In this document: piece after piece, positions 20,232-49,869 of the stretch
Layout of the letters: every line of letters starts with the position of its first letter
How positions within the stretch are numbered: position 1 is the first letter of the stretch
DNA from: Bacteroidales bacterium
GTDB taxonomy: Bacteria > Bacteroidota > Bacteroidia > Bacteroidales > UBA12077
Length of the DNA: 64,000 bases
Direction of reading: 5' to 3'
NCBI GenBank assembly: GCA_030611105.1
Contig: JAUWQL010000001.1
Span: forward strand, 5,531-69,530
Program-made: the position numbers and the translations under genes
The notes under the pieces: model-generated
What the model saw: only the letters and a program-made list of their open reading frames with translations
Told to the model about the DNA's origin: nothing
Databases searched by the model: none

Positions 20232-20275
20232 ATGTAAATTTACTAATTCTTTTGAGACTATAATAAGCAGCTATA

Positions 20276-20344: not shown

Positions 20345-20349
20345 CATTG

Positions 20350-20982
20350 TTATTTTGTTTTATCTAAAACCTTAACAAACATTCCATCCTGATTTTCTGT
20401 AAATCCTAATTTCTTTAGATATTTAGAATATTTTACGCTTCTACCGGAAGCTTTTACAATATCAAATCTGTCATCAATAAATTTTCTTCTTAAACGAAGA
20501 TAAATAAACCGGCCATTTTTAAAATCACGGTATTCCGGTACAACATAATCGAGTCCTACTTTTAGCACGTTGTTATCTTCTCTGTGTGCAAGAAATAAAC
20601 CTGCAACAGCTGTGTTTCTCAGAATAAAAAAACTTATGGTGTTCATTTCGGGTACATAAGTAAATCCAGGAAAGAACTTTTGTATTTCTTTGTTATGAAA
20701 TTTAAGAAAACGCAACAGATATTTATTATCTGCTCTGATTTCAAGTGTTTCGAATATTTCCTTTTTTGAATAAATAGTAAAAAGATAGTAAACATCAACA
20801 ATAACAATAAAGCCATTAAGAAATCCAACTGGTAAAGCACCAATAAGAAAACCATATGTTGAAAAAGTTATGGCTCCCGCTAAATTTATCCATCTGAATT
20901 TTACAATGGAATTCATTGTCATGGATAACGCAATGATTACTGAAGCAGCATAACCTATCCACTGAAGTATGTTTGTTTCCAT
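20350..20982 (-). CDS. 3-TM (YgjV / PQ-loop-like) membrane domain fused to a GNAT-like cytoplasmic domain, copy A
   Basis: 210 aa with three N-terminal helices. The C-terminal region has GLDYVVPEYRDFKNGRFIY and YLKKLGF, resembling GNAT motif A and the GNAT C-terminus. By-eye call. Confidence 0.5.
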   Translation of the reverse strand: METNILQWIGYAASVIIALSMTMNSIVKFRWINLAGAITFSTYGFLIGALPVGFLNGFIVIVDVYYLFTIYSKKEIFETLEIRADNKYLLRFLKFHNKEIQKFFPGFTYVPEMNTISFFILRNTAVAGLFLAHREDNNVLKVGLDYVVPEYRDFKNGRFIYLRLRRKFIDDRFDIVKASGRSVKYSKYLKKLGFTENQDGMFVKVLDKTK

Positions 20983-27388: not shown

Positions 27389-28761
27389 TTAATTATATAC
27401 AGATCTTTCTAAAAACCTACCTTTATTTTCTAAAACTAATTCTCCATTTTCAACAACAATCTCTCCATTTAAAATAACAAATTCCGTAGTTCCTTTGGTT
27501 TTGATTCCTTCATAAATTTCCAAATCGCAATTTTGATGATGATTTTCGACTGAAATAGTATTTTCTTTTTCAGGATTCCAGATAACTAAATCAGCATCTG
27601 AACCTATTGCTATTTCACCTTTTTGTGGATATAAACCAAATATCTTTGCTGCATTTGTTGCAGTAATATCAATAAACTGATTCAAGGTGATTCTGTTTTG
27701 TAAAACACCATAGGTGTAAAGCAATATCATCCTGTGTTCAACACCACTTGCACCGTTTGGAATTTTTCTAAAATCAGTAATCCCTGTTTTCTTTTGTTCT
27801 AATGTAAATGGACAATGATCTGTACCAACTGTTTTAACAACACCCTTTTTTATTGATTCCCAAAGCACTTCCTGATCTTCTTTTTTACGCAAAGGCGGAC
27901 TTATAACAAAAGGAGCAGTGTCTTCAAATTCGCCTGTATATTTAGAGTCATCTAATAACAAGTACTGTGGACAAGTTTCGGAATAAACCTTTTGTCCTGC
28001 TTTTTGAGCTTCTTCTATATATTTAATTGAATCTCCAGTGGATGTATGAACAATATATATTGAGCAACTGGCTTTTTTAGCCATTTCAATAGCATTTTTA
28101 ACAGCTTCTGATTCGGTGTGTGTTGGTCGTGAAACAGGATGAAATTCAGGACTTAAATTCCCATTCCCGGCAAGTTCATTTCTCAGCTCATCAATTTTAT
28201 CTCCTGTTTCACAATGTAATGTTACAATGCCTCCTGCTTTTCCGACAACTTGCATTACTTTAAAAATGTCATCATCATTTAAGCCAATGCTATCTTTATA
28301 AGCCATATAAACCTTAAAAGAAGTTATTCCGGCTTTTACACACTCCTTAATTTCTTGCTCTGTTGTATTCGTCCATTCAACGGGACTAACATGAAAAGAA
28401 TAATCGCAAATGGAATTTTCAGTTTCCGTTTTTCTTTGGTTTAAAGCATCAATTAAGGTTTGGCCTTTTTGTGGAGTAACAAAATCTATTAGGGTAGTGG
28501 TTCCGCCAAAAAGCGCTGCTTTGCTTCCCGATTTAAAATCATCCGATGAATAACCTGCAGGTGTTGGAAGGTGCATATGAACATGAGGATCTATTCCTCC
28601 GGGAAAAATATAGAAACCTTTGGCATCAATTGTTTTATCAATAGACTCATAGATATTTAATGAATTACCATTTGGACAATTTTATTATTGGAAATATAAA
28701 TATCAGAACTGAAAGTTCGATTTGAAGTAACAATAGTACCGTTTTTGATTAAAATGCTCAT
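27389..28761 (-). pseudogene. second hyuA-like dihydropyrimidinase copy, frameshifted after codon 30
   Basis: ATG at 28761 gives MSILIKNGTIVTSNRTFSSDIYISNNKIVQMVIH and then a TAA at 28657-28659. The rest (GNSLNIYESIDKTIDAKGFYIFPGGIDPHVHMHLP...) continues in another frame. This stretch is 59 nt versus 60 nt in copy A. Confidence 0.7.
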
Positions 28762-28801
28762 GTGTAAATGTACTAATTCTTTTGTAGTATAAAATGCTGC
28801 T

Positions 28802-28911
28802 TGTCATTCCGGGCATCCCGATAGCTATAGGGACAGGAATCTGTAATTAAATCTCTAAATAGATTATTCCCTTTGGTCATGAGAAAAGTTCCTGCCTGCG
28901 CAGGAATGACA
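28802..28911. repeat. GTCATTCC...GGAATGACA hairpin-repeat cassette
   Basis: TGTCATTCCGGGCATCCCGATAGCTATAGGGACAGGAATC ... TTCCTGCCTGCGCAGGAATGACA. Same intergenic position as 20276-20344, but with different internal content. Confidence 0.55.
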
Positions 28912-28916
28912 ATTTG

Positions 28917-29549
28917 TTATTTAGTTTTATCCAAAACCTTGACAAACATTCCATCCTGATTTTCTGTAAATCCTAATTTCTTTAGATATTTAGAATATTT
29001 CTCACTTTTACCGGTAGCCATTACAGTATTGAAACCATCATCAATAAATTTTCTTCTTAAACGAAGATAGATATATCTTCCGTTTTTAAAATCACGGTAT
29101 TCGGGAATTACATAATCCAGTCCGACTTTTAGAATATTGTTATCTTCTCTGTGTGCCAGAAAAAGTCCTGCAACAGCTGTATTTCTGAGGATAAAAAAAC
29201 TTATGGTGTTTATTTCGGGTTGGTACGTAAAACCGGGAAAAAACTTTTGTATTTCTTTGTTATGAAATTCTAAGAATCGTAGTAAATATTTATTACCGGC
29301 TCTTACTTCCAGAGTTTCAAAGATTTCCTTTTTTGTGTAAATCGTAAACAGATAATAAATATCGACAGTAACAATAAAGCCATTAAGAAATCCAACAGGC
29401 AAAGCTCCAATAAGAAAACCATATGTTGAAAATGTTATGGCTCCTGCTAAATTTATCCATCTGAATTTTACAATGGAATTCATTGTCATGGATAGAGCAA
29501 TGATAACTGAAGCCGTATAACCTATCCATTGTAATATGTTTGTTTCCAT
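28917..29549 (-). CDS. 3-TM (YgjV / PQ-loop-like) plus GNAT-like fusion protein, copy B
   Basis: The track ORF begins at a TTG at 29558. The ATG at 29549 (METNILQW) matches copy A. High identity to copy A by eye. Confidence 0.5.
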   Translation of the reverse strand: METNILQWIGYTASVIIALSMTMNSIVKFRWINLAGAITFSTYGFLIGALPVGFLNGFIVTVDIYYLFTIYTKKEIFETLEVRAGNKYLLRFLEFHNKEIQKFFPGFTYQPEINTISFFILRNTAVAGLFLAHREDNNILKVGLDYVIPEYRDFKNGRYIYLRLRRKFIDDGFNTVMATGKSEKYSKYLKKLGFTENQDGMFVKVLDKTK

Positions 29550-29554
29550 AATAT

Positions 29555-30940
29555 TCAAGAAAAAAGTTTAAAGTACAAAGATAAAAGTAAAAAGGGGGAT
29601 TTAAAGAAGAATAAAGTTATAGTTTCATTTTCCCCTTTTTCTTTTTCCTTTTGTCTTTTATCTTGATTTAGGCTTGCATTTTTTTTCCAGAGTCTTAAGG
29701 ATTGTTCTTTTGAGAATGCTAAAATTTCAGATTCGTTTACATTTTGAATTTTACGGTCTTTTACAATGATTTTCCCATTGGAAATAACATCATTTATATG
29801 ATTCGAATTGATCCCAAAAATGAAATGTCCCAAAAAATTATTTTGATTGATTTCGGTAGGAGAGTCATAATCCAGAATGACCAGATTGTTTTCTCCGTCG
29901 CCATCAAATTTGTTTATTTCGATATAATCATGCACTTTTCTGAAACGATCATATGCTGACGGATAATCAATAGTATCAAAACCTTGCCCAACAAAGAAAG
30001 CTGCTTTTGCGCTTTGTAACATATCGCTATGCATTCCATCTGTCCCAAGTAGTATATTATCACCTAATCCTTTGGCATTAAAATAGCCAACTTTATTATT
30101 TAAATTACTTTCCATATTCTGGACAACAAACGATTTTGAATTTTTTATGATACTCCGTTCATTATCATCAATATGTAAACAGTGTCCAAGAATAGTTTTC
30201 GAAGAATCTAAAACTCCATAATCGTTTAAGCGTTCAATTACTCGTTTATTATAATTATCCTGACAATGTCTTTGATCATAAAGGTCTTCTGCCACATGAA
30301 TATGGAAACCTGAATTGTATTTACTCATTAAATCAGCAGCTTTTATCATAGTTTCGTCACCAACCGTGAATGAAGCATGCAAACCTACCAGCCCCTGATT
30401 CGATTTTAAATAATTTTCTGTTTCTGAAATTCCTTTTTCAGCCTTGTCTAAACCGTCTCGGTCAGTAATTTCATAACATAATAAATGACTAATACCTACT
30501 TTATCAAATGCTTTTGCGATTATATCCAATGAACCTTCAATGAAATTTGGTGATGCATGATGATCAATAACAAAAGTTGAACCAGCTTTGGCGCATGCCA
30601 TAGCTGTGGTTAAAGCACTTGCTTCAATCATATCTTTATCCAAGCATTTGTCTAATGTCCACCAGATGTATTGCAGGATTTCATAAAAGTTTTCAGGATT
30701 TTTTTTCGGAGCCCCCATTCCACGTGCTAAAGCTGAATATACATGATGATGTCCGACTGCAAAAGATTTAGTAACCAGTTTCCCTCTACAATCAATAGTT
30801 TGATCTGTATTGTTTATATTATTAATATTATCAATGAATTTTATTTTACCGGAAATTCCTTTTTCAACTTGAATATTTGTATTTCTGAATTCTAAGGTTT
30901 TCCAGTCGATATAAATAGCGTTTTTTAGTAGAATAGACAT
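29555..30940 (-). CDS. ssnA: SsnA-family aminohydrolase (chlorohydrolase/deaminase superfamily)
   Basis: 461-aa ORF; metal motif AVGHHHVYS, HIHVAED and GTDGMHSD. The last ~39 aa are a low-complexity tail downstream of an A8 run (29679-29686) and may not be genuine. Confidence 0.78.
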   Translation of the reverse strand: MSILLKNAIYIDWKTLEFRNTNIQVEKGISGKIKFIDNINNINNTDQTIDCRGKLVTKSFAVGHHHVYSALARGMGAPKKNPENFYEILQYIWWTLDKCLDKDMIEASALTTAMACAKAGSTFVIDHHASPNFIEGSLDIIAKAFDKVGISHLLCYEITDRDGLDKAEKGISETENYLKSNQGLVGLHASFTVGDETMIKAADLMSKYNSGFHIHVAEDLYDQRHCQDNYNKRVIERLNDYGVLDSSKTILGHCLHIDDNERSIIKNSKSFVVQNMESNLNNKVGYFNAKGLGDNILLGTDGMHSDMLQSAKAAFFVGQGFDTIDYPSAYDRFRKVHDYIEINKFDGDGENNLVILDYDSPTEINQNNFLGHFIFGINSNHINDVISNGKIIVKDRKIQNVNESEILAFSKEQSLRLWKKNASLNQDKRQKEKEKGENETITLFFFKSPFLLLSLYFKLFS

Positions 30941-31168: not shown

Positions 31169-33718
31169 TTAATTTCTTTGTAATGGTAATTTAAATCTTT
31201 TCTTACCATCAAATTTATTGAAAGCACAAGCAACTGCTGCTGCTGTCGGAACCATTCCTATTTCACCTATACCTTTAGCACCATATGGCCCAATAGGATC
31301 TTTTACTTCAATCATTTTAACAACTATTTCGGGAGTTTCATGAGCTCTTAAAATCTTTAAATCTCTCATCTTATCACTTACTAAAAAACCGTCTTTCATA
31401 GGAAGTGATTCTGTTAATGCATATCCTAAGCCCATGTGAACACCGCCTTCAACCTGGCCTTCGAACAACATTGGATTCATTATTTTACCGCCATCATGTG
31501 CAGCAATCATTTTTGAGATTTTTCCATTATCATCTAAAATACAAACCTGAGCTGCATAACCATATGAATAATGTGTAATTTGCTCATCAACATCTGTTTC
31601 TGGCTTGGTTGTCCAGTCGCAAACATATTGTCCTTTATATGATTTACCGGCTAATTCTTTTAATGATTTTGTTTTTAAATCTTCTTTCAAAGCTTTAGCG
31701 GCATTTATGACAGCAAGTCCAACTAAAGCAGTTGCACGGGAGGAAGTTGTCATTCCTGTTTTTATCTGTGCTTCTGTATCAACAATAACTTCAATAATTT
31801 CAGGTGAAACAGAAGTTTCTTCACATAGGGTTTGTAAAGCCATGTTATGAACTCCCTGACCCATTTCTGTCCATCCGTGTTGCAATAGAATATGATTTTC
31901 AGAAATAATATCAATAATTACTTTCGATTCATCAACCATTCCGTTACCAACACCGGAGTTTTTAATGGCACAGGATAAACCCGCAAATTTTGCATTATTA
32001 AAATCTTCTTTCACAGCATCTAAACAAGCACGAATACCAACTCCAAAAACTTTCTGTCCGGTTGAAGTTTTTAATCCATCAACCAATGCATTGTCATATC
32101 TGAATTGCCAGCGATCAAAACCTCCTTTTTCGCAAATATCATCAATACAGCTTTCAACGGCAAAAGCTACCTGGTTTGCGCCAAATCCGCGCATAGCTCC
32201 GCAAGGAATATTATTGGTATAAACCGTTTTTGCTTCAATATCAATTTCAGGAATGAAATATCCTGCAGAAGCATGTCCGGCAACACGTTCAAGAACTTTC
32301 ATGCCTACTGATGCATAGGCTCCGGTATCACCAACAGCTTTGAGTTTTAAAGAAGTTAATTTCCCGTTTTCATCTGCTCCAATTTCAATATCCATAAATA
32401 CAGGATGGCGCTTGGGATGCAATCGGATTGATTCTTCTCGTGTTAATGTTAGTTTTACAGTCTTTTTTAAAAGATACGCAAAAAGTGATGTATGTCCCTG
32501 AACACTTAAATCTTCTTTTCCTCCAAAACCACCGCCATTAGGAACAAGTGTAACACGAACTTTTTCTTCAGGTAAGCCTAAAATCATAGCAACTTGTCGG
32601 CGATCTTCATAAACTCCCTGACTCTGACTAAAAAGTTCCAAACCATCTTTTCTATCAGGCCTTGCGATGGCAGCTTCTTTTTCCAAAAAAGCATGCTCAA
32701 CGCGCTGTGTTTCATAACGACCCTTAGATGTGAATTTTGAGTTTTTTAATGCTTTATCGGCATTACCAATCGTAAATTGGGTTGTATCAAAGTTATTTGG
32801 TTTTTCAGGATGAACACGTTCACCATCAATAGCTTTGAAAACATCAGTTACAGGTTTATATACTTCATAATCTACTTTAATCAGTTTAACAGCATCTCGG
32901 GCAATATCATCCGAATCGGCAACAACTCCTGCAATTACATCACCAATGTAATGTGTTGTTTCATCTTCTCCAATCATTACATTCCAATCCTGAAGAATCA
33001 AACCTACTTTCTTTTCTCCGGGTATATCTTTTGCCGTAAATACTCTATGAACTTCGGGAAGTTTTTCAGCTTCAGAAATGTCAATTTTTAAAACTTTCGC
33101 TTTTGGGTGATCACTAAACTTTAAAGCGGCAAATAGCATCCCTTCAAAATGCATATCATCAACAAAATCACGTTCACCAATAGCTGTTCTGTAAGCATCG
33201 TATTTTGGATGCGAAACACCAATTTTACCTGATGTTTTTGTTATTTCTAATTTTTTATTCTCACGTATAGCTTCTCCTGCATATCTAATTGCTTTTTCAA
33301 TTTTTTTGTATCCGGTACAACGACAAATATGTGGTTGTATGGCTTTTTGGATTTCTTCTATACTGGGATTCGGATTATCCTGCAATAAAACTTTGGTACG
33401 ACTTATAAATCCGGGAGTACAAAATCCGCATTGTACTGCTCCTTTGTTTACAAATGCCTTAGCAATAGTGTCTTTTACATATTCAGAGAAACCTTCCGGT
33501 GTAAAAATCTCAGTTCCGTTCAAAGTCTTCATTTTGATTACACAAGATAGTTTAGCTTTTCCGTCAACCTCTACAGTACATGCTCCACAGGCGGCCTGAC
33601 CAGAACAGCCATCTTTAACGGAAGTGATATGTTTGTCGAGCCTTAAATGTTTTAATAAGGTTTTTTCAGGATCTCCCGAATAAGATTCTTTTACTCCGTT
33701 TAAAGTATAGGTAATCAT
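31169..33718 (-). CDS. XdhD-like molybdenum hydroxylase with fused N-terminal 2Fe-2S domains (selenium-dependent molybdenum hydroxylase type)
   Basis: 849 aa; two [2Fe-2S] motifs (CSGQAACGACTV; CGFCTPG ... CRCTGY), then an aldehyde-oxidase/xanthine-dehydrogenase Mo-binding body (GGGFGGKED). No FAD domain. Confidence 0.83.
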   Translation of the reverse strand: MITYTLNGVKESYSGDPEKTLLKHLRLDKHITSVKDGCSGQAACGACTVEVDGKAKLSCVIKMKTLNGTEIFTPEGFSEYVKDTIAKAFVNKGAVQCGFCTPGFISRTKVLLQDNPNPSIEEIQKAIQPHICRCTGYKKIEKAIRYAGEAIRENKKLEITKTSGKIGVSHPKYDAYRTAIGERDFVDDMHFEGMLFAALKFSDHPKAKVLKIDISEAEKLPEVHRVFTAKDIPGEKKVGLILQDWNVMIGEDETTHYIGDVIAGVVADSDDIARDAVKLIKVDYEVYKPVTDVFKAIDGERVHPEKPNNFDTTQFTIGNADKALKNSKFTSKGRYETQRVEHAFLEKEAAIARPDRKDGLELFSQSQGVYEDRRQVAMILGLPEEKVRVTLVPNGGGFGGKEDLSVQGHTSLFAYLLKKTVKLTLTREESIRLHPKRHPVFMDIEIGADENGKLTSLKLKAVGDTGAYASVGMKVLERVAGHASAGYFIPEIDIEAKTVYTNNIPCGAMRGFGANQVAFAVESCIDDICEKGGFDRWQFRYDNALVDGLKTSTGQKVFGVGIRACLDAVKEDFNNAKFAGLSCAIKNSGVGNGMVDESKVIIDIISENHILLQHGWTEMGQGVHNMALQTLCEETSVSPEIIEVIVDTEAQIKTGMTTSSRATALVGLAVINAAKALKEDLKTKSLKELAGKSYKGQYVCDWTTKPETDVDEQITHYSYGYAAQVCILDDNGKISKMIAAHDGGKIMNPMLFEGQVEGGVHMGLGYALTESLPMKDGFLVSDKMRDLKILRAHETPEIVVKMIEVKDPIGPYGAKGIGEIGMVPTAAAVACAFNKFDGKKRFKLPLQRN

Positions 33719-34965
33719 TGAATTAGTTTTTTCAGATTTTCAATAGTCGGATGAATAGATTCAGGTATGTTCAGTAGTTTTTGTACCGAATTAAGATCTT
33801 TTAGTCCGCTTCCGGTTAAAAGTACAACATTTTTGGAGCTTTTGTCAAGTTTGTTTCCCATATAATAACTCAATAAACCAGCAAATGCTGTGGCTGCTGC
33901 AGGCTCGGCAAATATTCCTGTATTTCGGGATAATATGGCTGATGCTTCAAGAATAGCATCATCAGAAACTGTTAAATACTCACCATTATATTTTTGGATA
34001 AACTGTTTAGTAAGATTGAAATTTCTGGGAATATCAACCGATATAGAGTCAGCGATTGTATTGCTTGCTTTTATTTCAAATTCTTTATTATTCAGATTTC
34101 TTACCAGATTATCGCTGCCTTCGGATTGAACTGCTATAATAGTTGGAATTTTATCAATAAACTTAAGATTTAAAAGATCTTCAAAACCCTTGTAAACTCC
34201 CGAAATAATTACACCATCGCCAACGGGAACAAAAATTCTGTCAGGAATAGATTCATTCATTTGATCAAAGATTTCAAAAGAAACTGTTTTCTTACCTTCA
34301 ATAGTTAATGGATTATAAGCAGTATTTCTGTTGTACCAGCCAAACTCTTTGCTTGCTTTTATACTTAAGTCAAATGCATCATCGTAAGTTCCTTTTACAG
34401 GTACAATGGTTGCTCCGTACATCATAATCTGAGTTAGTTTTGCAATTGGAGCCAACTCAGGAACCATTATAATTGCATTTTGGTTTTGGGCAGCACAGAG
34501 TCCTGCCAGCGATGAGCCTGCATTTCCTGTTGATGCTGTAACAATAGTTTCAAAACCTTTTTCTTTGGCATAAGCCGAAACTATGGCCGACGCCCTGTCT
34601 TTAAACGAAAAAGTGGGATTTTGAGAATCATCTTTTAGAAATAAGTGAAAAGGTAAATCTTTATTATCCAATTTGTCAAATTCATATAAAGGAGTGTTTC
34701 CGACTTTCAATTTTGGAAGACTTTCAATTTTGTCGATTGGCAACAAGTCGAGAAAAATATTCTTTTTAAAATCACTGAACAGAAAATTTTTCTGTAAAAT
34801 TTCAGAAAAGTTATAAACAATTCTAAGAATACCTTTTGGTGGAGAAGAATCATTATTTTCCTTGCTGCAATTGGGACAGAGATATAAGGTTTTATCTGAA
34901 CCGAATTGTTTTCCACAATCGGTACACTCATAAATGAATTTTTGAGTAGTGTAATTATGTTCCAT
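33715..34965 (-). CDS. threonine-synthase-like fold-type-II PLP enzyme with N-terminal zinc ribbon
   Basis: 416 aa; CTDCGK...CPNCSK zinc ribbon, PLP-lysine motif PTFSFKDRAS, and glycine loop TASTGNAGSS. Overlaps the XdhD-like gene by 4 nt. Confidence 0.7.
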   Translation of the reverse strand: MEHNYTTQKFIYECTDCGKQFGSDKTLYLCPNCSKENNDSSPPKGILRIVYNFSEILQKNFLFSDFKKNIFLDLLPIDKIESLPKLKVGNTPLYEFDKLDNKDLPFHLFLKDDSQNPTFSFKDRASAIVSAYAKEKGFETIVTASTGNAGSSLAGLCAAQNQNAIIMVPELAPIAKLTQIMMYGATIVPVKGTYDDAFDLSIKASKEFGWYNRNTAYNPLTIEGKKTVSFEIFDQMNESIPDRIFVPVGDGVIISGVYKGFEDLLNLKFIDKIPTIIAVQSEGSDNLVRNLNNKEFEIKASNTIADSISVDIPRNFNLTKQFIQKYNGEYLTVSDDAILEASAILSRNTGIFAEPAAATAFAGLLSYYMGNKLDKSSKNVVLLTGSGLKDLNSVQKLLNIPESIHPTIENLKKLIQ

Positions 34966-35185
34966 AGTATTTGAACTACTGCTAATTTAACTATTTTTGT
35001 TTAATTCATTCAAAAATAATTTAGGTGTTAAACAAAATAAAGGTGTCTCAGTAGTTACATATAAAGGTTTGGTATACCTGTGATTTTACTTATTGAATAA
35101 GTTTTTGTATTGAGTTAATTCAGGTAATTAGTAGCTACATACGGGACACCTTTTGCATTATCATAGTTTTATTGTACTCACGTTC

Positions 35186-36658
35186 TTATAATAATCCGGT
35201 TCTTTCGTTAAACTCATTAATTAATTCATCCCATCGATTTAACTGATTAAATTGTTTATCCCAGATTTCTCTATCATTCCATAACTGATTCAAATCTTCA
35301 ACTTCTTTTTCTTGTTGTTCAATCCATGTAAAATATTTCAGATTATGAATAGCTTTTTTATCGTAATAATTTAGCTCTTTAGTATAATCGATGGTACAAC
35401 CAAGCATACATTTTTCAAAATCTTTAACCGCCTGAATTTGGTTGTATTCACCTCGTTTTGCTTCCAGTTCGGCAATTCTTGATTGATACATATCTGCTGA
35501 ATCAGTAGCAATGGTAATAACTACATCATCTTCAGTCATTTCGTAATATTTTGCTATTTTTATTGATGATAGTAAATTACCAATACCGGATACTCCGATT
35601 AAATGAAGATTATCAATGATTTCCTGATCAATTCCAATCGATTTTAAATATTTATGACCTTCTTTCTCATTGAATAAACGAAGAATTCTCATACAATCTT
35701 CATCGTCAATTGCTGTTACAACATCCGTATTTTTAACATTATGAATCCATGGTACATGTTTGTCGCCTATACCTTCAATTCTATGTCCGCCAAATCCATT
35801 CATTAAAAGGGTAGGGCACTGTAAAGCTTCTGATGCAACAACTTTTAAATGCGGAGTAATAGTTCTCAGATAATCTCCGGCAGCAATTGTTCCAGCTGAT
35901 CCTGTTGCAGAAATATAAGCTGCTAAATTACTTTTTTCTTTTTTTACCAGATTGTAAACTTCTTCGATTGCTTTACCTGTTGTATTGTAGTGCCAGGCAG
36001 CATTTCCAAACTCATCGAACTGATTGAATATTACACAATCAGGGCGGGTTCTTCTGATTTCCCAACATTTATCGTAGATTTCTTTTACGTTTGATTCACA
36101 TCCGGGAGTAGCAATAACTTCAGAGCCAATTATATCGCGTAACCAGGTAAAGCGTTCTTCACTCATTTCTTCCGGTAAAATTGATACAGATTCTGTACCC
36201 ATTAATTTTGAATCAAATGCTCCACCGCGGCAATAATTTCCTGTTGATGGCCAAACTGCTTTATGATAACTTGGATCAAATTCACCGGTTGTAATTCTTG
36301 GTGCTAAGCAACCATAAGCGGCTCCAACTTTATGCGATCCGGTTGGAAACCATTTTCCTATCAGTAAAACAATTCTTGCTTTAACACCTGTAAGCTCTTT
36401 TGGTAATTCTATATAGTTCACATTTCCAAACAAACCGCCTTTTTCTTTTGGCTCGTTTTTCCAGGTAATTCTGAAAAGATTTAAAGGATTTATTTCCCAT
36501 AAACCTATGTTTTTTAGTTGATCTTTAATTTTATCAGGAATTAATTCCGGATTTCTTTGTTGTTCAAAAGTTGGAAGAATTATTCCGTTTTCTTTGTATC
36601 GTTTCACAGCATTTTTTAATGCTTTCTCATTGGTTACTTTATCAATTATAGGAATCAT
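35186..36658 (-). CDS. atypical 490-aa fold-type-II PLP-dependent enzyme (Trp-synthase-beta superfamily)
   Basis: Candidate PLP lysine in FPTGSHKVGAAYG and glycine loop ISATGSAGTIAAG, plus long N- and C-terminal extensions. The precise family was not recognised. Confidence 0.55.
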   Translation of the reverse strand: MIPIIDKVTNEKALKNAVKRYKENGIILPTFEQQRNPELIPDKIKDQLKNIGLWEINPLNLFRITWKNEPKEKGGLFGNVNYIELPKELTGVKARIVLLIGKWFPTGSHKVGAAYGCLAPRITTGEFDPSYHKAVWPSTGNYCRGGAFDSKLMGTESVSILPEEMSEERFTWLRDIIGSEVIATPGCESNVKEIYDKCWEIRRTRPDCVIFNQFDEFGNAAWHYNTTGKAIEEVYNLVKKEKSNLAAYISATGSAGTIAAGDYLRTITPHLKVVASEALQCPTLLMNGFGGHRIEGIGDKHVPWIHNVKNTDVVTAIDDEDCMRILRLFNEKEGHKYLKSIGIDQEIIDNLHLIGVSGIGNLLSSIKIAKYYEMTEDDVVITIATDSADMYQSRIAELEAKRGEYNQIQAVKDFEKCMLGCTIDYTKELNYYDKKAIHNLKYFTWIEQQEKEVEDLNQLWNDREIWDKQFNQLNRWDELINEFNERTGLL

Positions 36659-36817: not shown

Positions 36818-37282
36818 ATGATGAAAACGATTGATGAAATAGATAAGAAGTTATTGAATATCCTGCAAACCAATAGCAGAATTACTATTCGCGAACTTTC
36901 CGAAAAATTGCATTTATCTACAACCCCGATTCATGAGCGGATAAAAAAACTTGAAAAGAATGGATATATTAAACAGTATATCACATTGGTTGATCCTAAA
37001 ATGATAGGAAAGGAGCTGATTGTTTATGTTTCTGTATCGCTGAATAAGCATACTAAAGAAGCAATTGAGGAATTTGAAGCTCAAATGCAAAAGCTGGATG
37101 AAGTTATGGAATCCTACTATATTTCCGGTAGTTCAGATTTTCTTTTAAAAGTTTATTGTAATGATATGGATGATTTTCATCAATTTATTACCAATAAATT
37201 TTCTATAATTGGCAATATTACCCAGTTTTACAGTTCTTTTGTAATGTCAGAAACTAAAGTAAAACAGAATTTTAAGTTGTGA
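36818..37282 (+). CDS. Lrp/AsnC family transcriptional regulator
   Basis: 154 aa; an HTH (LDxxDxKILxxLQxNSRITIRELSEKLHLS pattern) plus a RAM/AsnC-type ligand domain. Divergent from the PLP-enzyme operon. Confidence 0.87.
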   Translation: MMKTIDEIDKKLLNILQTNSRITIRELSEKLHLSTTPIHERIKKLEKNGYIKQYITLVDPKMIGKELIVYVSVSLNKHTKEAIEEFEAQMQKLDEVMESYYISGSSDFLLKVYCNDMDDFHQFITNKFSIIGNITQFYSSFVMSETKVKQNFKL

Positions 37283-37367
37283 AAAATATTTTTTTGAATG
37301 TTGTATTATATACAAAGACTGATTAAAAATAATTTATAATTTACTTGAAAGATATACTAAAATGATA

Positions 37368-37375
37368 TACCTTTG
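37368..37375 (+). promoter_or_regulatory. TAnnTTTG -7 motif upstream of the antitoxin gene
   Basis: TACCTTTG lies 21 nt upstream of the ATG at 37396. Confidence 0.4.
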
Positions 37376-37395
37376 TGATATAAAATAAATATATT

Positions 37396-37626
37396 ATGAA
37401 AACTGTATCATTAAAAATAGATGATTTAATCTTTAGAGAAACTGAGAAGATTCTTTCCAGAATTAAAAAACCCAGAAATAGATATATCAACGAGGCAATT
37501 GAATATTACAATAAATTTCAAAAGCGGTTGATTATTGAAAAAAGGCTGAAAATGGAATCAGAATTAGTTAAAAAAGATTCAATTTCTGTACTTAAAGATT
37601 TCGAGGAGATTGATTATGCCGATTAA
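37396..37626 (+). CDS. small antitoxin-like protein (RHH/MazE-like position)
   Basis: 76 aa, overlaps the downstream PemK/MazF gene by 11 nt. The N-terminal beta-strand-like MKTVSLKIDD fits a ribbon-helix-helix. Confidence 0.55.
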   Translation: MKTVSLKIDDLIFRETEKILSRIKKPRNRYINEAIEYYNKFQKRLIIEKRLKMESELVKKDSISVLKDFEEIDYAD

Positions 37627-37963
37627 ACAATTTGAAATATGGATTGCAGATTTGAATCCGCAAATTGGGACAGAAACAGGTAAAACAAGGCTTGTTCTTA
37701 CTATACAGACAAATTTGTTAAATAAAATTCCGCACCCTTCTACAATAATTTGCCCGATAACGACAAATGTTAAAAAAGATTCTAATATTTTAAGAGTTCA
37801 TATAAAAAAGGGGGTTGCAAATGTCAATAAAAACTGTGATATTATGCTTGACCAGATTCGGGCAATAGATAATAATCGATTAATAAAAAAAGTAGGTGAT
37901 TTACCTGCGGATTTGATTGTTATTATCAAAGAAAATATTTTGATAATACTTGATTTGGAATAA
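37616..37963 (+). CDS. mazF: PemK/MazF family type II toxin (endoribonuclease)
   Basis: MPIKQFEIWIADLNPQIGTETGKTR, ICPITT and DQIRAIDNNRL are typical MazF/PemK segments. The ATG at 37616 is preferred over the TTG at 37610. Confidence 0.83.
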   Translation: MPIKQFEIWIADLNPQIGTETGKTRLVLTIQTNLLNKIPHPSTIICPITTNVKKDSNILRVHIKKGVANVNKNCDIMLDQIRAIDNNRLIKKVGDLPADLIVIIKENILIILDLE

Positions 37964-38195
37964 TCCACTATACAGGTATATATCAAATCTTTTCCTTTTT
38001 GTCATATTTATTGCTATCAATCTTTTTATTTTAAAATTGTTATACTCCAGCGATATTTATATGGTTGATTATTAAGAACTTTTATAGTATTCATTATAAT
38101 AACTACTGTGCTAAATATTCCAAGAAATATTACAATTGGTAGTCCTATAAGCAAAAGAACAAGCAAACCTGGGCTCAGCAGAAAATTAGGGTGGC

Positions 38196-39044
38196 TTAGG
38201 CATAAATTTTAGCAAGTCTAAAAAGGAAAAAAGATATATCTGTCACACCTCTTTGTGTCGCTCTGAAAGCTTTTATTTTAGCATTAAAAGATTCTGCAGA
38301 AGCATTTGTGCTTCGATTATCAAAAAAGTTAAGAATTTCCGGATAATGAGAATAAATTGTGGCAGATATAGTATTAAACGATTTGAACCCTGATTCTGTT
38401 ATAGTATTGAACCATTGAGCAAGTTTTGTATATGCAACACCTTTTGTTTTAGTATGAGAGAATATCATTCTTAATGAATGAGTTAGATTGTAAGCTTCTT
38501 TGATATCAGGGTATTCTATAAATAATATTTTAGCTCGTACTTTTTGTTTCTCTGTCCATTTCTCTTGTGATTTAAAGAGCAAATATCTGCTACGGGCTAA
38601 TAATTGTTTTCGTGTATCTCCATTTTGAAATACCTTTGGTATATATTTTATGTTATCAGATTTTGCATTTTCTATTGCATTAGTTTCTTCATTTATAGCA
38701 TTCCAACGATGTGCGATACGTATTTCTTGAACGGCATCATAAGCTAATTTCTGAACATGAAAACGATCAATAACTTTTGTAGCATTTGGAAAACATTTTA
38801 CAACAACTTTACTCATGGAACCAGCCATATCTAATGTAATTTCTTTTACTGTTGCTCTAAGTTTTTTTGGTATACGTTCAATAACTTCTATGATTTGATC
38901 GCTACCAGTTCCTTCTATCATAGCAACTATTGTCCCTTTTCTGCCTTTGCCTGCTTTATTTGTTAAAACAGTATATAACTCACCATTAGATAAGCTTGTT
39001 TCGTCTATGCTTAATTGAGCACCTATATTATCAGGAAAAAGCAT
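38196..39044 (-). CDS. ISAon1-family transposase, catalytic part
   Basis: 282 aa from the first ATG; the frame stays open upstream to about 39190. Segments IDETSLSNGELYT, DRFHVQKLA and STNASAESFNAKIKAFR match my recollection of this transposase family. Confidence 0.8.
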   Translation of the reverse strand: MLFPDNIGAQLSIDETSLSNGELYTVLTNKAGKGRKGTIVAMIEGTGSDQIIEVIERIPKKLRATVKEITLDMAGSMSKVVVKCFPNATKVIDRFHVQKLAYDAVQEIRIAHRWNAINEETNAIENAKSDNIKYIPKVFQNGDTRKQLLARSRYLLFKSQEKWTEKQKVRAKILFIEYPDIKEAYNLTHSLRMIFSHTKTKGVAYTKLAQWFNTITESGFKSFNTISATIYSHYPEILNFFDNRSTNASAESFNAKIKAFRATQRGVTDISFFLFRLAKIYA

Positions 39045-39171
39045 CCATTCTTTTGCATGTTCTTTTTGATCCCATTCTTGATAATCACTTAAATGTTCTT
39101 TATACTGCCGGCCGAAATAAGTCCCATTTATATGATAATGTTTTTCTAAACTATTACTACTAATTGGAAAA

Positions 39172-39522
39172 TTATCTAAATATTTCTTTTAAAAAAGCAG
39201 CAAACTCTTTTGTGTAACTTGTGCCGTTTGCTGTTAAATTCCAATTAGTCATATAGACCTTCCCTGTTTGTTTATCTATCCATTTGCGACGTCTTATTAT
39301 AAAGTAAACTGCTTTCTCTCTTATTGGGAAATCTTGAATGTGTACAGCTTCATCAAATCCTTTCGAAACTAATTCTTTATCGGAATGTTCAGAAGGTTTT
39401 ATTGGTTTCTCATCCAAATACAACAATAAACGATTATTGGTATCTTCTTTAATATTGACAAAATCAAAATAAAGCTGGATCTCTTTAGGTAATAAATATT
39501 GCAATATTGATTCTATTTCCAT
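39172..39522 (-). CDS. ISAon1-family transposase N-terminal region protein
   Basis: 116 aa; DFPIREKAVYFIIRRRKWIDKQTGK matches the recalled N-terminal-region family. Ends inside a TTTTTAAAAG stretch where the downstream frame opens. Confidence 0.8.
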   Translation of the reverse strand: MEIESILQYLLPKEIQLYFDFVNIKEDTNNRLLLYLDEKPIKPSEHSDKELVSKGFDEAVHIQDFPIREKAVYFIIRRRKWIDKQTGKVYMTNWNLTANGTSYTKEFAAFLKEIFR

Positions 39523-40131
39523 AAAGTAAAAATAGAAAATATTTATAACTCCACCCTAATTTTCTGCTGAGCCCAAACCTGCAGGGATCATATATATTAA
39601 CATACTAAGTTGAAAATTAATTACATCTACTGCATGCGAATCTATATCTTTGATCGTGTTCTTTTTCCAAACCCAGATAATAATTGGAGGGAAAAGCATA
39701 ATAAATAAGCCACTAAGGTGCAAAAGTGCTAACCAAATTGTATTTTCTGTTTGAGTATTTTTTTCAAACTCAATATCATCCATAATATTTAATTCATTAT
39801 AATCAACATCTAATGCTGATGCTATTGACTGCAAAGTAAATGATCTAGGATCAACTTCGCTATTTTCAATGCGTTGTATGGTGCGAACACTAAGCTCAGT
39901 TTTTTCAGCAAGCTCTTCTTGAGTCATCCCTTTTTTAATTCGCAATTCTTTAATTCTTTGTCCTGTATTCATTTTTAAATTGTATTATAGGTTTTATTAT
40001 TTTCTTTTAAGCAAATATCTGATAAATCCATGTTACAATCCAACTACATTAACACGACATTTACCTGACATTAATTAATCTAAAAATTCTATAACTAATA
40101 TTTATACAGATATTAAAGTTGTAAAGTAAAA

Positions 40132-43100
40132 CTATCTAAAAACCAAATTATTAGCAGATTTTAATAAAATGCTCATTTCTGCTGCAAGTTCAAAGTTCAT
40201 TTCTTTAATAGATTTTGAACTAAATTTAATTTCCAAAATTGAAAAATCATTTTTATCTAATCTTGCAGTTCCTTCTTCTGATGTAAAAATGTACTCAGTT
40301 TGATTTTCTAAAAGTGATACAGTTTTACCATTTTGTTTGTAAATAAGAGTTTTCGCATTTTTAGTGTTTTCAAGATAAAAACCTTCTTCTGCCATATCAA
40401 ATGACGATTTAGTTAACCAAAACTTGGGTTTCTCTTTGTATGGTGCGCTATTGGTCGGGCAGAATGTATTACAATTCCCACATTCATTACAGAAATTAGC
40501 AATATTTAATATTTGATACTTCTGTTTAACTTCAAAAATTCTTTCGTTTTGGATTTCAATTTCTCCATTTCCAAGTTGAATAGCTTTCTGAAGATGATAA
40601 TTTACAGGTTCAATCTCATAAGAATAATTGGCAAAATTAGGGCAAACCGTTGTACATATATTACAAATTTCATCACAATACAAGCAACGTTCAGCTTCAT
40701 TTATAATGGTTTCCCGATCCAGTGTTTTGCTTACCAGTTTTAAATTTTTACGATCATTTATACCCAGTTCTTTTAGTTCAGGAGCAAACTTTCTGCTTGC
40801 TTTTTTTAGCATTAGTTCTTTTTTGCTTAAGTTTTTTCCATTGGCAGGTTTTGGAATGCTAAAATCAATTTCTGCTTTTTTAATAATTTGTTCAGCTGCT
40901 TTTCTTCCATCTCCAATGGCTTTAATTGCAGTTGCAGCACCACGCAAGGCATCACCACCAATAAATATATTTTCAATTTGTATTTGATAATCACTTGTAT
41001 CTGCTTTTAATAACTCTTTCTTTATAAAATCAATATCCAGACTTTGACCAATTGCCGGAATAATGGTATCGCACGGAATTTCAAACTCTGACTCTTCAAT
41101 TTTTACAGGCCTTGGCCTGCCTGATGAATCTGTTTCTTTTAATTCCATTTTACTGCAAAGCAATGCTTTAACCTGTCCATTTTCGTTTATTACTTTTTCA
41201 GGCCCTGCCAGTTCAATAATTTCCATATTTTCTTCTAAGACAGCTTTTATTTCTCCCTGATCAGCGGGCATTTCATTTATAGTACGTCTGTAAACAATGG
41301 TTACTTTGCCATCTTCACCAACTAATCGCCAGGCCGTTCTTGCAGCATCCATAGCTGTGTTACCACCGCCAATAATAACCACATTCTTCCCAATTCCGGA
41401 TTTTTCACTTTTTTTAGCTTTAAAAAGGAAATCCAGCGAATCAACAACTCCCTCTGATTCTATTCCATCCAGTTGGAAAGGAGCAGAGAGTTGCGCTCCT
41501 GTACCGATAAATAAATAGTTGTAATTTTCTTTTAATGATTGAAACTTGTTTTGATCAACTTTGCTGTTATAATGAATTTGAACACCAAGATCGGTAACAC
41601 GTTTAAAATCTTTTTCAATAGCTTCATCAGTTAATCTAAAACCGGGAATAGCATACTGAACCATTCCTCCGGCTTTGGAGTTTGCTTCAAAAATATCAAT
41701 TGAAAAACCTGCAAGGGCAAGATAATAAGCACATGATAAACCCGATGGACCTGCTCCAATAATGGCAATCTTGAAATTATTTTTATTTTCAGGATTTAAT
41801 TTTACTTCATCTTGTTCCGAAATAAAGCGTTTTACTTCACGAATCAGCAGGGAATCATCATAATTAACACGAGTACATTTATTTTGGCACAAATGATCGC
41901 AAACCATTCCGGTAATTGCCGGAAAAGGATTAGTCTTTAAAATTACTTCATAAGCTTTATCAAACTGATTAGTGGAAGTATAATACATGTAATCAGGAAT
42001 ATCCTGATTTGTAGCACAGGTGTCTTTACAAGGTGCGGAAATACAATCAAAATAACCCAAATTCCGATCAGTCTTAATATCAGGATCTTTTATGTAATTT
42101 CTTTTGTATTGCTTTGAATCAAGAACTTTCTCTGCATATTTATTCAGGTTTTTCAAAGCAGCATCTTTCAGGCTTTTACCAGCTCCTGAATTTTTTACAA
42201 ATTCCTGTATATTGCTTGCATTTTGAGTTTTAAAATCATTTATTAGTTCTTCAAAATACTGATTCAACCGCATGTAGCCGCCTGGTTTTAATATATCGGA
42301 ACATACTGTTACTGTTTTAAATCCGCAAGAAAGAATATTGGAAATATTGAAAGTATCGGCTCCGGCTGAGAATGACAATTGTAATTCTCCACTGAATTCA
42401 TTCTGTAATTTCTTAGCGACATGAATTGAAATAGGATGTAGAGCACGGCCACTCATATACATCATATCTACACCGGAGCCAAACACTGATTTGTTATTTA
42501 TTGATTCTAACGTATTAGTAAGTTTTAATCCAAAATGTAGATTTTTTTGCTTTGCTGTTTTCTGTAAGGATCGAATAATTATTAAAGCATCCTGATATTT
42601 TAAATCATGTTCAAAGGCAATATCAGGAACTTCTGTTCTAAAGTTTAATGTATCATTCAGAATTTCTCTTAATAGATATGATCCCAGTAATGTTGGATTC
42701 AATTTCACATAAGTATGCAGATTCTTTTCTTCCAATAGATATTTGGCAATGTCTTCGATTTCATTTGCCGGACAGCCGTGCATGGTTGATAAGGTAATAT
42801 TATTTGATAATTGAGCAGGAATCTCAATGGAATCAATGTCAGGATAAATTTCCTGAATTTCATTTATCTTTTCTTTCAGTTCCAAAGAAGAATTATTCAT
42901 TTTACTAAAAAACCACTGAATATTATCCTGTAGAATTCCTTCAAGGTTATAACCGACACTCATATTAAAAATAGTACCAATTTCTTTGTTCCATCCAAAT
43001 TTATTATTCAGAATATGTATAATAATCCATGCATTAAGGTATTCGTTAAAGCTTTCTTTTATTTTTAATTCCTGCGACCATTCACAATTATAACCTTCAT

Positions 43101-43410
43101 CCTGCATGTCAATACAGGGCTTTGCAATTTCAAGCTCATCCAGTGTTTGTATGGTTTTTAATTCAATATAACGAGCACCCATCAGCCACGCTCCAATAAT
43201 ATTTTGTGCCATTTGAGAATGCGGGCCGGCAGCAACACCAAGCGGAGAATCAATGTTTTGATTGAACTGTTCTACCTTAAAAAGATTGTTTTTTACAGGA
43301 TTAAAGAATAATTCTTCAGGAATGCCAAAAATACTTTGGCTATTATTATATTCTTTTAAAATAATTTGCAATAATTGCTTTATAGATATGGGATAAAACT
43401 TGTCTGACAT
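40132..43410 (-). CDS. ygfK: YgfK-family multidomain Fe-S flavoprotein oxidoreductase (annotated elsewhere as putative selenate reductase subunit YgfK)
   Basis: 1092 aa; N-terminal DHODH/DPD-like TIM-barrel region, a GltD-like dinucleotide fold (IAIIGAGPSGLSCAYYLA; VVIIGGGNTAMDAA), and C-terminal ferredoxin motifs (CLYCDEICNICTTVCP; CNECGNCNTFCP). Confidence 0.86.
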   Translation of the reverse strand: MSDKFYPISIKQLLQIILKEYNNSQSIFGIPEELFFNPVKNNLFKVEQFNQNIDSPLGVAAGPHSQMAQNIIGAWLMGARYIELKTIQTLDELEIAKPCIDMQDEGYNCEWSQELKIKESFNEYLNAWIIIHILNNKFGWNKEIGTIFNMSVGYNLEGILQDNIQWFFSKMNNSSLELKEKINEIQEIYPDIDSIEIPAQLSNNITLSTMHGCPANEIEDIAKYLLEEKNLHTYVKLNPTLLGSYLLREILNDTLNFRTEVPDIAFEHDLKYQDALIIIRSLQKTAKQKNLHFGLKLTNTLESINNKSVFGSGVDMMYMSGRALHPISIHVAKKLQNEFSGELQLSFSAGADTFNISNILSCGFKTVTVCSDILKPGGYMRLNQYFEELINDFKTQNASNIQEFVKNSGAGKSLKDAALKNLNKYAEKVLDSKQYKRNYIKDPDIKTDRNLGYFDCISAPCKDTCATNQDIPDYMYYTSTNQFDKAYEVILKTNPFPAITGMVCDHLCQNKCTRVNYDDSLLIREVKRFISEQDEVKLNPENKNNFKIAIIGAGPSGLSCAYYLALAGFSIDIFEANSKAGGMVQYAIPGFRLTDEAIEKDFKRVTDLGVQIHYNSKVDQNKFQSLKENYNYLFIGTGAQLSAPFQLDGIESEGVVDSLDFLFKAKKSEKSGIGKNVVIIGGGNTAMDAARTAWRLVGEDGKVTIVYRRTINEMPADQGEIKAVLEENMEIIELAGPEKVINENGQVKALLCSKMELKETDSSGRPRPVKIEESEFEIPCDTIIPAIGQSLDIDFIKKELLKADTSDYQIQIENIFIGGDALRGAATAIKAIGDGRKAAEQIIKKAEIDFSIPKPANGKNLSKKELMLKKASRKFAPELKELGINDRKNLKLVSKTLDRETIINEAERCLYCDEICNICTTVCPNFANYSYEIEPVNYHLQKAIQLGNGEIEIQNERIFEVKQKYQILNIANFCNECGNCNTFCPTNSAPYKEKPKFWLTKSSFDMAEEGFYLENTKNAKTLIYKQNGKTVSLLENQTEYIFTSEEGTARLDKNDFSILEIKFSSKSIKEMNFELAAEMSILLKSANNLVFR

Positions 43411-43621: not shown

Positions 43622-44251
43622 ATGATCAATTTCAGAAAAAATATGAAGCAAAATAATAAAATAGAAAAAGATTTTTCTGCAATTATTCTCGCTGCCGGAA
43701 AATCATCACGGATGGGACTTCCAAAACTGGCATTAAGATATAATGAAACCAAAATTTTTATTGAACAGATTGTAAACGAATATGAAAGTTTTGGATGTGA
43801 AGAAATTCTTATTGTTGTGAATGGAACAGGAAACAGCTTTTTGACAGAAAATAAAATTCAATTTTCGGGTAATGTAAAAATTGTAATTAATAATCATCCT
43901 GAATGGCATCGGTTTTATTCTTTAAAAACAGGAGCAAAGAGTATGTCAGAAGTTTTACCTGTTTTTGTTCATAATGTCGATAATCCTTTTGTAAATCATG
44001 AAGTATTAAATGAATTATTAAGAAACACCGACAAGGTAGATTATATAAGCCCTGAATTTGATGGAAAAGGAGGACATCCGATTTTACTTTCAGAGAAAAT
44101 AATTAAGGATGTAATTGCAACAGTAGAGAATCAAATACATTTTAAAGAATATCTGAATAAATATCCCAAAAAGAAAGTACAGGTTGATGATGAAAAGATT
44201 TTGGTGAATATTAATACCTTGGAAGAATATAAAAAGTACTTCAATTTCTAG
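43622..44251 (+). CDS. MocA/YgfJ-type molybdenum cofactor nucleotidyltransferase
   Basis: AIILAAGKSSRMGLPK is the MobA/MocA signature. The start may instead be the ATG at 43643. Confidence 0.78.
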   Translation: MINFRKNMKQNNKIEKDFSAIILAAGKSSRMGLPKLALRYNETKIFIEQIVNEYESFGCEEILIVVNGTGNSFLTENKIQFSGNVKIVINNHPEWHRFYSLKTGAKSMSEVLPVFVHNVDNPFVNHEVLNELLRNTDKVDYISPEFDGKGGHPILLSEKIIKDVIATVENQIHFKEYLNKYPKKKVQVDDEKILVNINTLEEYKKYFNF

Positions 44252-46558: not shown

Positions 46559-46571
46559 AGTAATCGTCAGT

Positions 46572-49863: not shown

Positions 49864-49869
49864 CTTAGA

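Follow-up and report, generated by a model that had tools for sequence, protein, structure and literature searches.

Two misannotated pyridoxal phosphate enzymes accompany a YgeX-less variant of the reductive urate gene cluster

Introduction

The locus described here raises the question of how a reductive urate pathway ends when its cluster does not encode the terminal enzyme, YgeX. The locus lies in a stretch of 64,000 nucleotides (the window; G+C content ~31%) from a Bacteroidales bacterium (assembly GCA_030611105.1, contig JAUWQL010000001.1, positions 5,531 to 69,530) and contains, among urate genes, two genes for pyridoxal phosphate (PLP) enzymes: one derived from threonine synthase (ThrC), here called ThrCL, and one of 490 residues, here called PLP490. 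A GLPGLI-family protein, an ISAon1 transposase and nearest homologues labelled as Bacteroidales MAG proteins agree with this origin. The anaerobic urate pathway was worked out as recently as 2025. In the published scheme, urate is converted to 2,3-diaminopropionate (DAP) by XdhD, YgfK, SsnA, a hydantoinase, YgeW (with YqeA) and YgeY, and DpaL, also called YgeX, then splits DAP into pyruvate and two molecules of ammonia; both of the 2025 papers behind this scheme name YgeX as the terminal enzyme. The variants found in those papers are UacX and UacY in C. difficile and an F420 enzyme in Chloroflexota. The E. coli YgeX accepts both DAP isomers, and phosphorolysis by YgeW is reported to be thermodynamically unfavourable. 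In addition, a 2022 preprint that examined a library of human-gut strains described urate consumption as "notably absent in Bacteroidetes."

No threonine-synthase-like or cysteine-synthase-like gene is mentioned in the two 2025 pathway papers, and neither gene appears in the 2022 gene-cluster preprint, in a preprint on uricolysis by Prevotella copri or in wider literature searches, which returned no paper that connects either PLP gene with ssnA/ygeW clusters. The finding reported here is an undescribed variant of a known pathway, built from two enzyme families whose annotation is misleading. We propose, with a probability of roughly 0.55, that the conserved PLP pair forms the amino acid end of the reductive urate pathway in a widespread variant that lacks YgeX.

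Results

ThrCL and PLP490 lie in a urate cluster without YgeX

Family-model scans of the window proteins, with tblastn searches using the E. coli pathway proteins as confirmation, identify the genes around ThrCL and PLP490 as a complete reductive (2,8-dioxopurine) urate cluster (Table 1). An earlier, sequence-only reading of the locus had proposed that two unrelated fold-type II PLP enzymes occupy the position of DpaL. Both open reading frames (ORFs) lie where that reading had placed them, ThrCL with its FSFKDRAS motif and N-terminal Cys ribbon and PLP490 as an atypical enzyme with the motif FPTGSHKVG and long extensions, and the divergent Lrp/AsnC gene was likewise recovered. The predicted 4-nt overlap is also present, the TGA stop of ThrCL sharing an ATGA with the ATG start of the gene for the XdhD-like enzyme. 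The word "unrelated" applies to the subfamilies of the two enzymes, which differ, and not to their fold, which is type II in both. That no dpaL/ygeX is visible was borne out: tblastn with E. coli YgeX found no DpaL/YgeX in the 64-kb window, the sole signal being a weak match on ThrCL (27% over 127 aa). The same kind of search with the E. coli carbamate kinase YqeA found no homologue within the 64 kb.

Either ThrCL or DpaL occupies the slot beside PLP490

In a related Bacteroidales locus (L038; L numbers denote loci), the gene order is PLP490–YgeX–XdhD, with YgeX located where ThrCL sits elsewhere. A metagenome scan seeded with the L038 YgeX yielded four more contigs (L092, L093, L094 and L096) in which PLP490 is directly upstream of YgeX, and XdhD comes after YgeX wherever the contig is long enough to show it (L038 and L093). 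The YgeX proteins of L038 and L093 exceed the cut-off of the DpaL equivalog NF006058 (406 and 415 bits versus 276) and retain the TDGNHG motif. ThrCL and DpaL alternate in a single slot and PLP490 accompanies either; the PLP490–DpaL arrangement is that of a Bacteroidales sublineage, represented by five contigs. This pattern is the principal ground for proposing that ThrCL has the role of DpaL and PLP490 another one. The claim that the pair occupies the DpaL position is therefore literally correct for ThrCL, as seen in L038-type loci, and does not extend to PLP490. Similarly, of the two functions that had been offered, replacement of DpaL suits ThrCL, and the processing of a different intermediate is the more likely one for PLP490, which co-occurs with DpaL. 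We consider it somewhat better than an even chance that ThrCL is a DAP lyase substituting for DpaL, and the best reading of PLP490 is that it would provide an extra PLP step alongside either lyase; any specific reaction assigned to PLP490 is doubtful.

The pair is linked to urate genes across phyla

Homologues of ThrCL and PLP490 with >80% identity are found in many metagenome-assembled genomes (MAGs) of Bacteroidales, Marinilabiliales and Salinivirgaceae, and every long contig of a close relative that was inspected shows the order Lrp<>PLP490–ThrCL–XdhD–SsnA–210aa–(X)–hydantoinase–YgeW–YgeY. An exhaustive representative search delimits PLP490 as a discrete family: at 50% identity it comprises 342 clusters with E<1e-30, and its most distant full-length members are ~30% identical. 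When one genome per GTDB species was scanned, PLP490 was found on at least 594 contigs. The locus statistics that follow are for the best 80 loci, with neighbours sought in 10-kb flanks; the scan used alignment A3, alignment A2 (13 sequences, 30–64% identity) being too divergent. The PLP490 proteins of these 80 loci are 57–82% identical to the window protein and come from 10 or more phyla, which include Bacteroidota, Bacillota, Planctomycetota, Elusimicrobiota, Verrucomicrobiota, Ignavibacteriota, Chloroflexota, Acidobacteriota, SAR324 and Spirochaetota.

Clustering of the neighbouring proteins places ThrCL first among the families, at 34 of the 80 loci, followed by XdhD-like proteins (33), SsnA (25), YgfK (23), YgeW (21), YgeY (17), YqeA (12), hydantoinase (10) and MocA (9); the remaining families occur at 7 loci or fewer each, and the YgeX family is not among the neighbour clusters. 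Counted by tblastn, at least one core urate gene is present at 50/80 loci, ThrCL at 39/80 and YgeX at 1/80. Of the 26 loci that carry at least three core families, 19 have ThrCL and none has YgeX. ThrCL directly adjoins PLP490 on the same strand in 29 loci, downstream in 23 and upstream in 6, and PLP490 adjoins YgeW in 6. Whole clusters that contain the pair and no YgeX are found in Clostridiaceae (L062), Vallitalea maricola (L071), SAR324 (L087), Holophaga (L086), LCP-89 (L046), Planctomycetota (L053 and L064) and another Bacteroidota lineage (L056). Only a small percentage of genomes contain a urate cluster (a published survey counted 2,102 among 52,515 MAGs), and chance does not account for the linkage of the pair to urate genes. 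The association with the purine gene set that the sequence-only reading had put forward is thus strong across phyla, and ThrCL and PLP490 very probably belong to the urate pathway.

ThrCL has a ThrC fold and an altered active site

ThrCL contains a full PALP domain (E=3e-71), in which K122 of the motif PTFSFKDRAS is the PLP lysine, and an N-terminal CxxC...CxxC element (C14, C17, C30 and C33) with a weak match to DUF7129. Its best matches in both sequence and structure are class I threonine synthases (29–33% identity, Foldseek template modelling (TM) score ~0.8), with secondary similarity to serine/threonine dehydratases and serine racemase. DpaL models are absent among the best 25 ThrCL matches listed, and the loop motif, ASTGNAG, is without the DpaL TDGNHG motif and its catalytic Asp.

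Comparison of four solved ThrCs, which have in common the motifs ASTGNT, NSVNPxRxEGQKT and PVGNAGN, with 33 ThrCL family members from many phyla reveals a consistent pattern of replacement (T. thermophilus numbering). K61 and S84–N87 are retained in the ThrCL family. T88 is replaced by Ala, N188 by Asp and A189 by Gly in 33/33 members, and R160 is Thr, Leu or Met in all 33 and never Arg; S155 is Thr or Ala in 30, Cys in 2 and Ser in 1. The T, R and N at positions 88, 160 and 188 are retained by all four solved ThrCs. In the window ThrCL, the residues at the positions of T88, N154, S155, R160 and N188 are A149, N214, T215, T221 and D250. We take these five ThrC residues to bind the phosphate of the substrate or product in the T. 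thermophilus ThrC complexes; if so, the phosphate pocket of ThrC would be replaced in ThrCL by a pocket with an invariant carboxylate, and the invariant Asp would suit the 3-ammonium group of DAP. In addition, no thrA or thrB was seen near ThrCL, and the gene sits in a urate cluster in Bacteroidota and at least nine other phyla. It had been anticipated that ThrCL might simply be the housekeeping thrC product. Judged from its sequence and context it appears not to be, because the ThrC-invariant residues are lost throughout the family and because the gene alternates with bona fide DpaL.

PLP490 is a highly constrained relative of CysK

The Pfam PALP domain of PLP490 spans residues 105–334 only. 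Among NCBIfam models it gives weak matches to CysK, CBS and SbnA, the best being to TIGR01139 (CysK; 106 bits versus a cut-off of 351), and it falls far below every CysK/CysM/CBS cut-off. DpaL models are absent among its eight family-model matches, and its loop motif is PSTGNYC. In the AlphaFold model (predicted local distance difference test (pLDDT) 84.8, predicted TM score (pTM) 0.89) the core, residues ~76–395, superposes on CysK, β-cyanoalanine synthase and CBS with TM scores to target of 0.77–0.80 and 22–27% identity (Foldseek), whereas ~160 residues of N- and C-terminal helices have no structural match (TM score to query ~0.53). The PLP lysine K110, the S138-T139-G140-N141 carboxylate loop, Q213 and the G253-S-A-G-T257 phosphate loop are conserved, and the CysK-family fold and core PLP-binding residues are present. 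Among 67 orthologues, 134 of the 490 positions are invariant, many of them in both extensions; they include H109, C117, C143, C281 and a GIGDKH loop. This degree of constraint is unusual for a catabolic enzyme and suggests a partner interface or demanding chemistry. PLP490 is ~60% identical across phyla, compared with ~40% for ThrCL. In the S/T-x-G-N loop, the second-base position is occupied by Thr in ThrCL as well as in PLP490, and not by Ser or Asp. Four long hits considered as possible PLP490–ThrCL fusions (P0391, P0364, P0250 and P0377) were rejected, as they are assembly duplications, frameshifts or chimeras.

Other features of the locus and of related clusters

The spacer between PLP490 and ThrCL contains a conserved element that occurs once per locus and in the closest Bacteroidales relatives only (L001 11513–11628, L004 11498–11604, L008 2235–2342, L009 9828–9934 and L029 11503–11609). 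Its closing stem of 12 bp, AAAGGUGUCU.../...AGACACCUUU, includes a single compensatory C-G/G-C column, and the internal stretches UUACCUGAAUUAACUCAAUACA and CAGGUAUACCAAACCUU are near-invariant. Rfam searches of the window and of the spacer gave no match for this element, the only hit being RNase P RNA elsewhere (197 bits). Placed upstream of ThrCL–XdhD–SsnA, the element may act as an RNA regulator in cis, as an attenuator or as a site of protein binding. The Lrp regulator is kept at 76–89% in L001, L004, L006, L008, L009, L011 and L029, again in the closest Bacteroidales only. In L001 and L009 it is directly adjacent to ygfK; in the window, fragmented transposase ORFs lie between the two genes.

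A module made up of a 210–213-aa protein and a hydantoinase is present twice, as a segmental duplication (27389–29558 versus 18864–20982). The second hydantoinase copy has lost its N terminus by frame disruption, with a remnant upstream to ~28760, and ~6 kb of unrelated genes separate the two copies (a GLPGLI protein, an 882-aa protein, a 348-aa unannotated ORF, a LytR-type response regulator and RibD_C). The ~210-aa protein has no match in Pfam or NCBIfam. Hydrophobic N-terminal helices are apparent, the C-terminal part is GNAT-like by eye, and the protein is kept between SsnA and hydantoinase in related Bacteroidales (orthologues in L001, L004, L008, L009, L018 and L029); it may be a further uncharacterized member of the cluster variant. 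Because dnaA adjoins modABC, the cluster appears to be near the likely replication origin region.

Table 1. Features of the urate locus and its surroundings in the window
Feature	Position	Strand	Remark
XdhC-family maturation factor	14842-15792	-	
YgeY M20 hydrolase	16075-17262	+	
YgeW knotted carbamoyltransferase	17399-18586	+	
D-hydantoinase/dihydropyrimidinase (HyuA-like)	18864-20231	-	Full-length
Paralogue of the 213-aa protein	20350-20982	-	
Second hydantoinase copy	27389-28576	-	N terminus disrupted; probable pseudogene; 87% identical to full-length copy
213-aa conserved protein	28917-29558	-	Predicted N-terminal membrane helices; 4-nt overlap with SsnA stop
SsnA amidohydrolase	29555-30940	-	
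XdhD-like selenium-dependent molybdenum hydroxylase	31169-33718	-	TIGR03311, 891 bits versus cut-off 830
ThrCL, ThrC-derived PLP enzyme	33715-34965	-	416 aa; N-terminal 4-Cys zinc ribbon
Conserved structured intergenic element	35030-35156	-	~110 nt; PLP490/ThrCL spacer
PLP490, fold-type II PLP enzyme	35186-36658	-	490 aa
Lrp/AsnC-family regulator	36818-37282	+	Divergent
Region of fragmented ISAon1/ISL3-family transposase ORFs	37283-40131		ORFs 38196-39044, 39172-39522, 39556-39972
YgfK flavoprotein/Fe-S reductase	40132-43410	-	2,8-dioxopurine reductase homologue
MocA/YgfJ-like molybdenum cofactor cytidylyltransferase	43622-44251	+	
XdhB/XdhA-type xanthine dehydrogenase	44306-47975	-	Two genes
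ModCBA molybdate ABC transporter	48005-50664	-	
dnaA	50889-52322		Beside modABC
RNase P RNA class A	59348-59675	+	

Related clusters in other lineages differ in their surroundings. L046, L053, L056 and L064 are compact operons of XdhD, YgfK, SsnA, YgeW, YgeY, ThrCL and PLP490 in varied orders, with YqeA in L053, L056 and L064 and no hydantoinase in view in any of the four; ring opening may be different in these lineages or be carried out by an unlinked gene. In Bacillota clusters with PLP490 and ThrCL, a ~214-aa regulator-like protein, YheO-like by eye only, replaces Lrp (L055 9360–10004, L058 8969–9613 and L071 3041–3676). L071 and L034 also contain a 570-aa amidohydrolase that is adenine-deaminase-like, again by eye only.

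Discussion

We propose that ThrCL takes over the job of DpaL by binding DAP in place of O-phosphohomoserine and β-eliminating its 3-amino group; it would do so with the retained PLP lysine and carboxylate loop, without the ThrC-invariant residues and with a newly gained invariant Asp. PLP490 would be a CysK-fold enzyme of the β-replacement/elimination type with essential extra domains, and it would be required alongside either lyase, ThrCL or YgeX. The linkage of the genes, the alternation in the slot and the altered active site are observations; the substrates and reactions are inferred. Because PLP chemistry requires a free α-amine, its candidate substrates are intermediates with a free α-amino group, such as albizziin (3-ureidoalanine) or DAP. 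Candidate steps are a direct β-elimination or replacement on albizziin, or a coupling to YgeW by which PLP490 may pull the unfavourable phosphorolysis and with it the formation of carbamoyl phosphate (ATP). PLP490 is not simply a hydantoinase substitute, because L046, L053, L056 and L064 have no hydantoinase in view while the Bacteroidales clusters have one. A tentative and fuller form of the proposal would make PLP490 a new, highly conserved PLP family whose reaction has no counterpart among the eight enzymes of the published pathway, and ThrCL an independently evolved, ThrC-derived DAP ammonia-lyase.

Several observations weigh against this proposal. ThrCL exceeds the cut-off of TIGR00260 (191 bits versus 167), so that NCBI models would still name it a threonine synthase; it remains below the cut-offs of five other ThrC equivalogs (e.g., NF006050, 210 versus 303 bits). 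A distant ThrCL, that of L062, does exceed the NF006050 "threonine synthase" cut-off; this model evidently covers Zn-ribbon ThrC-like proteins. The phosphate-binding roles that we assume for the replaced ThrC residues were not confirmed in the searchable literature. A dpaL gene may lie elsewhere in the source genome, outside the 64 kb. Four urate clusters (L031, L049, L073 and L083) have PLP490 and neither ThrCL nor YgeX within 10 kb. PLP490 also occurs alone outside a purine context, beside a glycyl-radical enzyme in Anoxybacter fermentans and in non-purine surroundings in L039, L045 and L063, and two Clostridia (L077 and L080) carry the pair near serA/serC/dapF/dapL with no purine genes nearby. 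No second shared context theme was found among the loci with PLP490 alone (L039, L045, L063 and L091) and those with the pair alone (L077 and L080), whose neighbours are housekeeping genes, a glycyl-radical enzyme and dapF/dapL/serA/serC.

Because PLP490 is found without ThrCL or YgeX in those four urate clusters, it could itself be the lyase. In such a scheme, PLP490 would end the pathway as a DAP or albizziin β-lyase and ThrCL would be an accessory enzyme, for example for the other enantiomer or a side product. PLP490 is indeed the constant member of the module, occurring with ThrCL, with YgeX or alone; it is by far the more conserved of the two proteins, and it often adjoins YgeW, whose product has a free α-amine. 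However, in five contigs a bona fide DpaL lies directly beside PLP490 and would be redundant if PLP490 were the lyase, the DpaL slot is held by ThrCL and not by PLP490, and where PLP490 appears alone, ThrCL may lie beyond the 10-kb flanks. We regard this explanation as unlikely. The tight adjacency of PLP490 and ThrCL in both gene orders and across phyla could also reflect an obligatory two-step reaction, in which PLP490 converts DAP to serine by β-replacement with water and ThrCL converts serine to pyruvate, or PLP490 racemizes D-DAP for an L-specific ThrCL lyase. The hydantoinase is of the D type, E. coli YgeX takes both isomers, and the similarity of ThrCL to serine/threonine dehydratases and serine racemase would fit as well. 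Yet PLP490 is retained beside a YgeX with the TDGNHG two-base motif, which should need neither a racemase nor a serine detour, and the second-base position is Thr in ThrCL and PLP490. Among solved fold-type II racemases none is closer to PLP490 than CysK. A two-step scheme is thus quite improbable, and a racemase role for PLP490 was down-weighted on account of the Thr and of the co-occurrence with YgeX.

Two further explanations place one or both enzymes outside urate catabolism proper. Selenide can be used by CysK-type enzymes, and PLP490 might serve the selenium-dependent molybdenum hydroxylase through cofactor supply, for instance as an enzyme that makes or breaks down selenocysteine. The XdhD-like enzyme matches a model for selenium-dependent xanthine dehydrogenases and YqeB/YqeC homologues were not seen in the 26 clusters, as this would have it; but PLP490 is linked most closely to ThrCL or YgeX and to YgeW, not to XdhD or maturation genes, and it is present at loci without any hydroxylase, so that little credence attaches to a selenium role. 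The least probable explanation, which we consider very remote, is that the pair consists of ordinary biosynthetic enzymes, a threonine synthase and a cysteine-synthase-like protein under Lrp control, that merely lie beside purine genes. The database names, the TIGR00260 score and the serA/serC/dapF/dapL neighbourhood in two Clostridia are what such an explanation would predict. It is opposed by the linkage to urate genes across 10 or more phyla, by the disappearance of ThrC-invariant residues from ThrCL, by the position of PLP490 far under all CysK/CysM/CBS cut-offs and by the alternation of ThrCL with DpaL.

If the fuller, tentative form of the proposal is correct, most non-gut lineages, including Bacteroidales that have been scored as nondegraders, would end the anaerobic breakdown of purines in a manner unlike the E. 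coli/Clostridium model. The variant is present in hundreds of species of many phyla, among them Bacteroidales, an order reported without urate consumption in a human-gut strain screen, and searches with the E. coli/Clostridium gene set including ygeX would miss or mis-score it. This is of practical concern, as the anaerobic urate pathway is being engineered into probiotics against gout. Two enzyme functions would follow, a ThrC-derived DAP lyase and a new CysK-fold family tied to the carbamoyl phosphate/ATP-yielding end of the pathway. Database records misname ThrCL as "threonine synthase" and PLP490 as "cysteine synthase," and because the L062 member exceeds NF006050 the ThrC label will persist for ThrCL.

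Comparison with known systems places the two enzymes as follows. DpaL/YgeX (NF006058, TIGR03528 and TIGR01747) is, like ThrCL, a fold-type II PLP enzyme of the same gene cluster, and in relatives it holds the ThrCL slot between PLP490 and XdhD. However, ThrCL is only ~22–27% identical to it over part of the length, lacks TDGNHG/Asp120 and has a Zn ribbon, and PLP490 is unrelated to it beyond the fold. With the class I threonine synthases of B. subtilis (6CGQ) and T. thermophilus (1UIM), ThrCL shares the PLP lysine, the S-T-G-N loop and a TM score of ~0.8, but it differs from them by T88A, S155T/A, R160T/L/M and N188D, by the extra Zn ribbon and by its urate context. The core of PLP490 resembles the CysK family (O-acetylserine sulfhydrylase, CBS and β-cyanoalanine synthase) in its Asn loop, Gln and glycine-rich phosphate loop; in contrast to these enzymes of ~300 aa, it has 490 aa, a TGSHK lysine motif, the GIGDKH loop and ~75 N-terminal and 95 C-terminal residues rich in invariant positions. 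Cysteate synthases (the ThrC-derived TIGR03844 and CapA/CapA2 of Bacteroidetes, 9K3C) indicate that ThrC and CysK folds can be recruited to C3 amino acids, but they use O-phosphoserine and sulfite, and ThrCL and PLP490 score weakly against them and are found in no sulfonate context. Finally, the C. difficile urate cluster, in which UacX stands in for YgfK and UacY for YgeW and YqeA, provides a precedent for the nonorthologous replacement of single steps. That variant retains YgeX, whereas the variant in the window alters the PLP end of the cluster and adds a second PLP enzyme.

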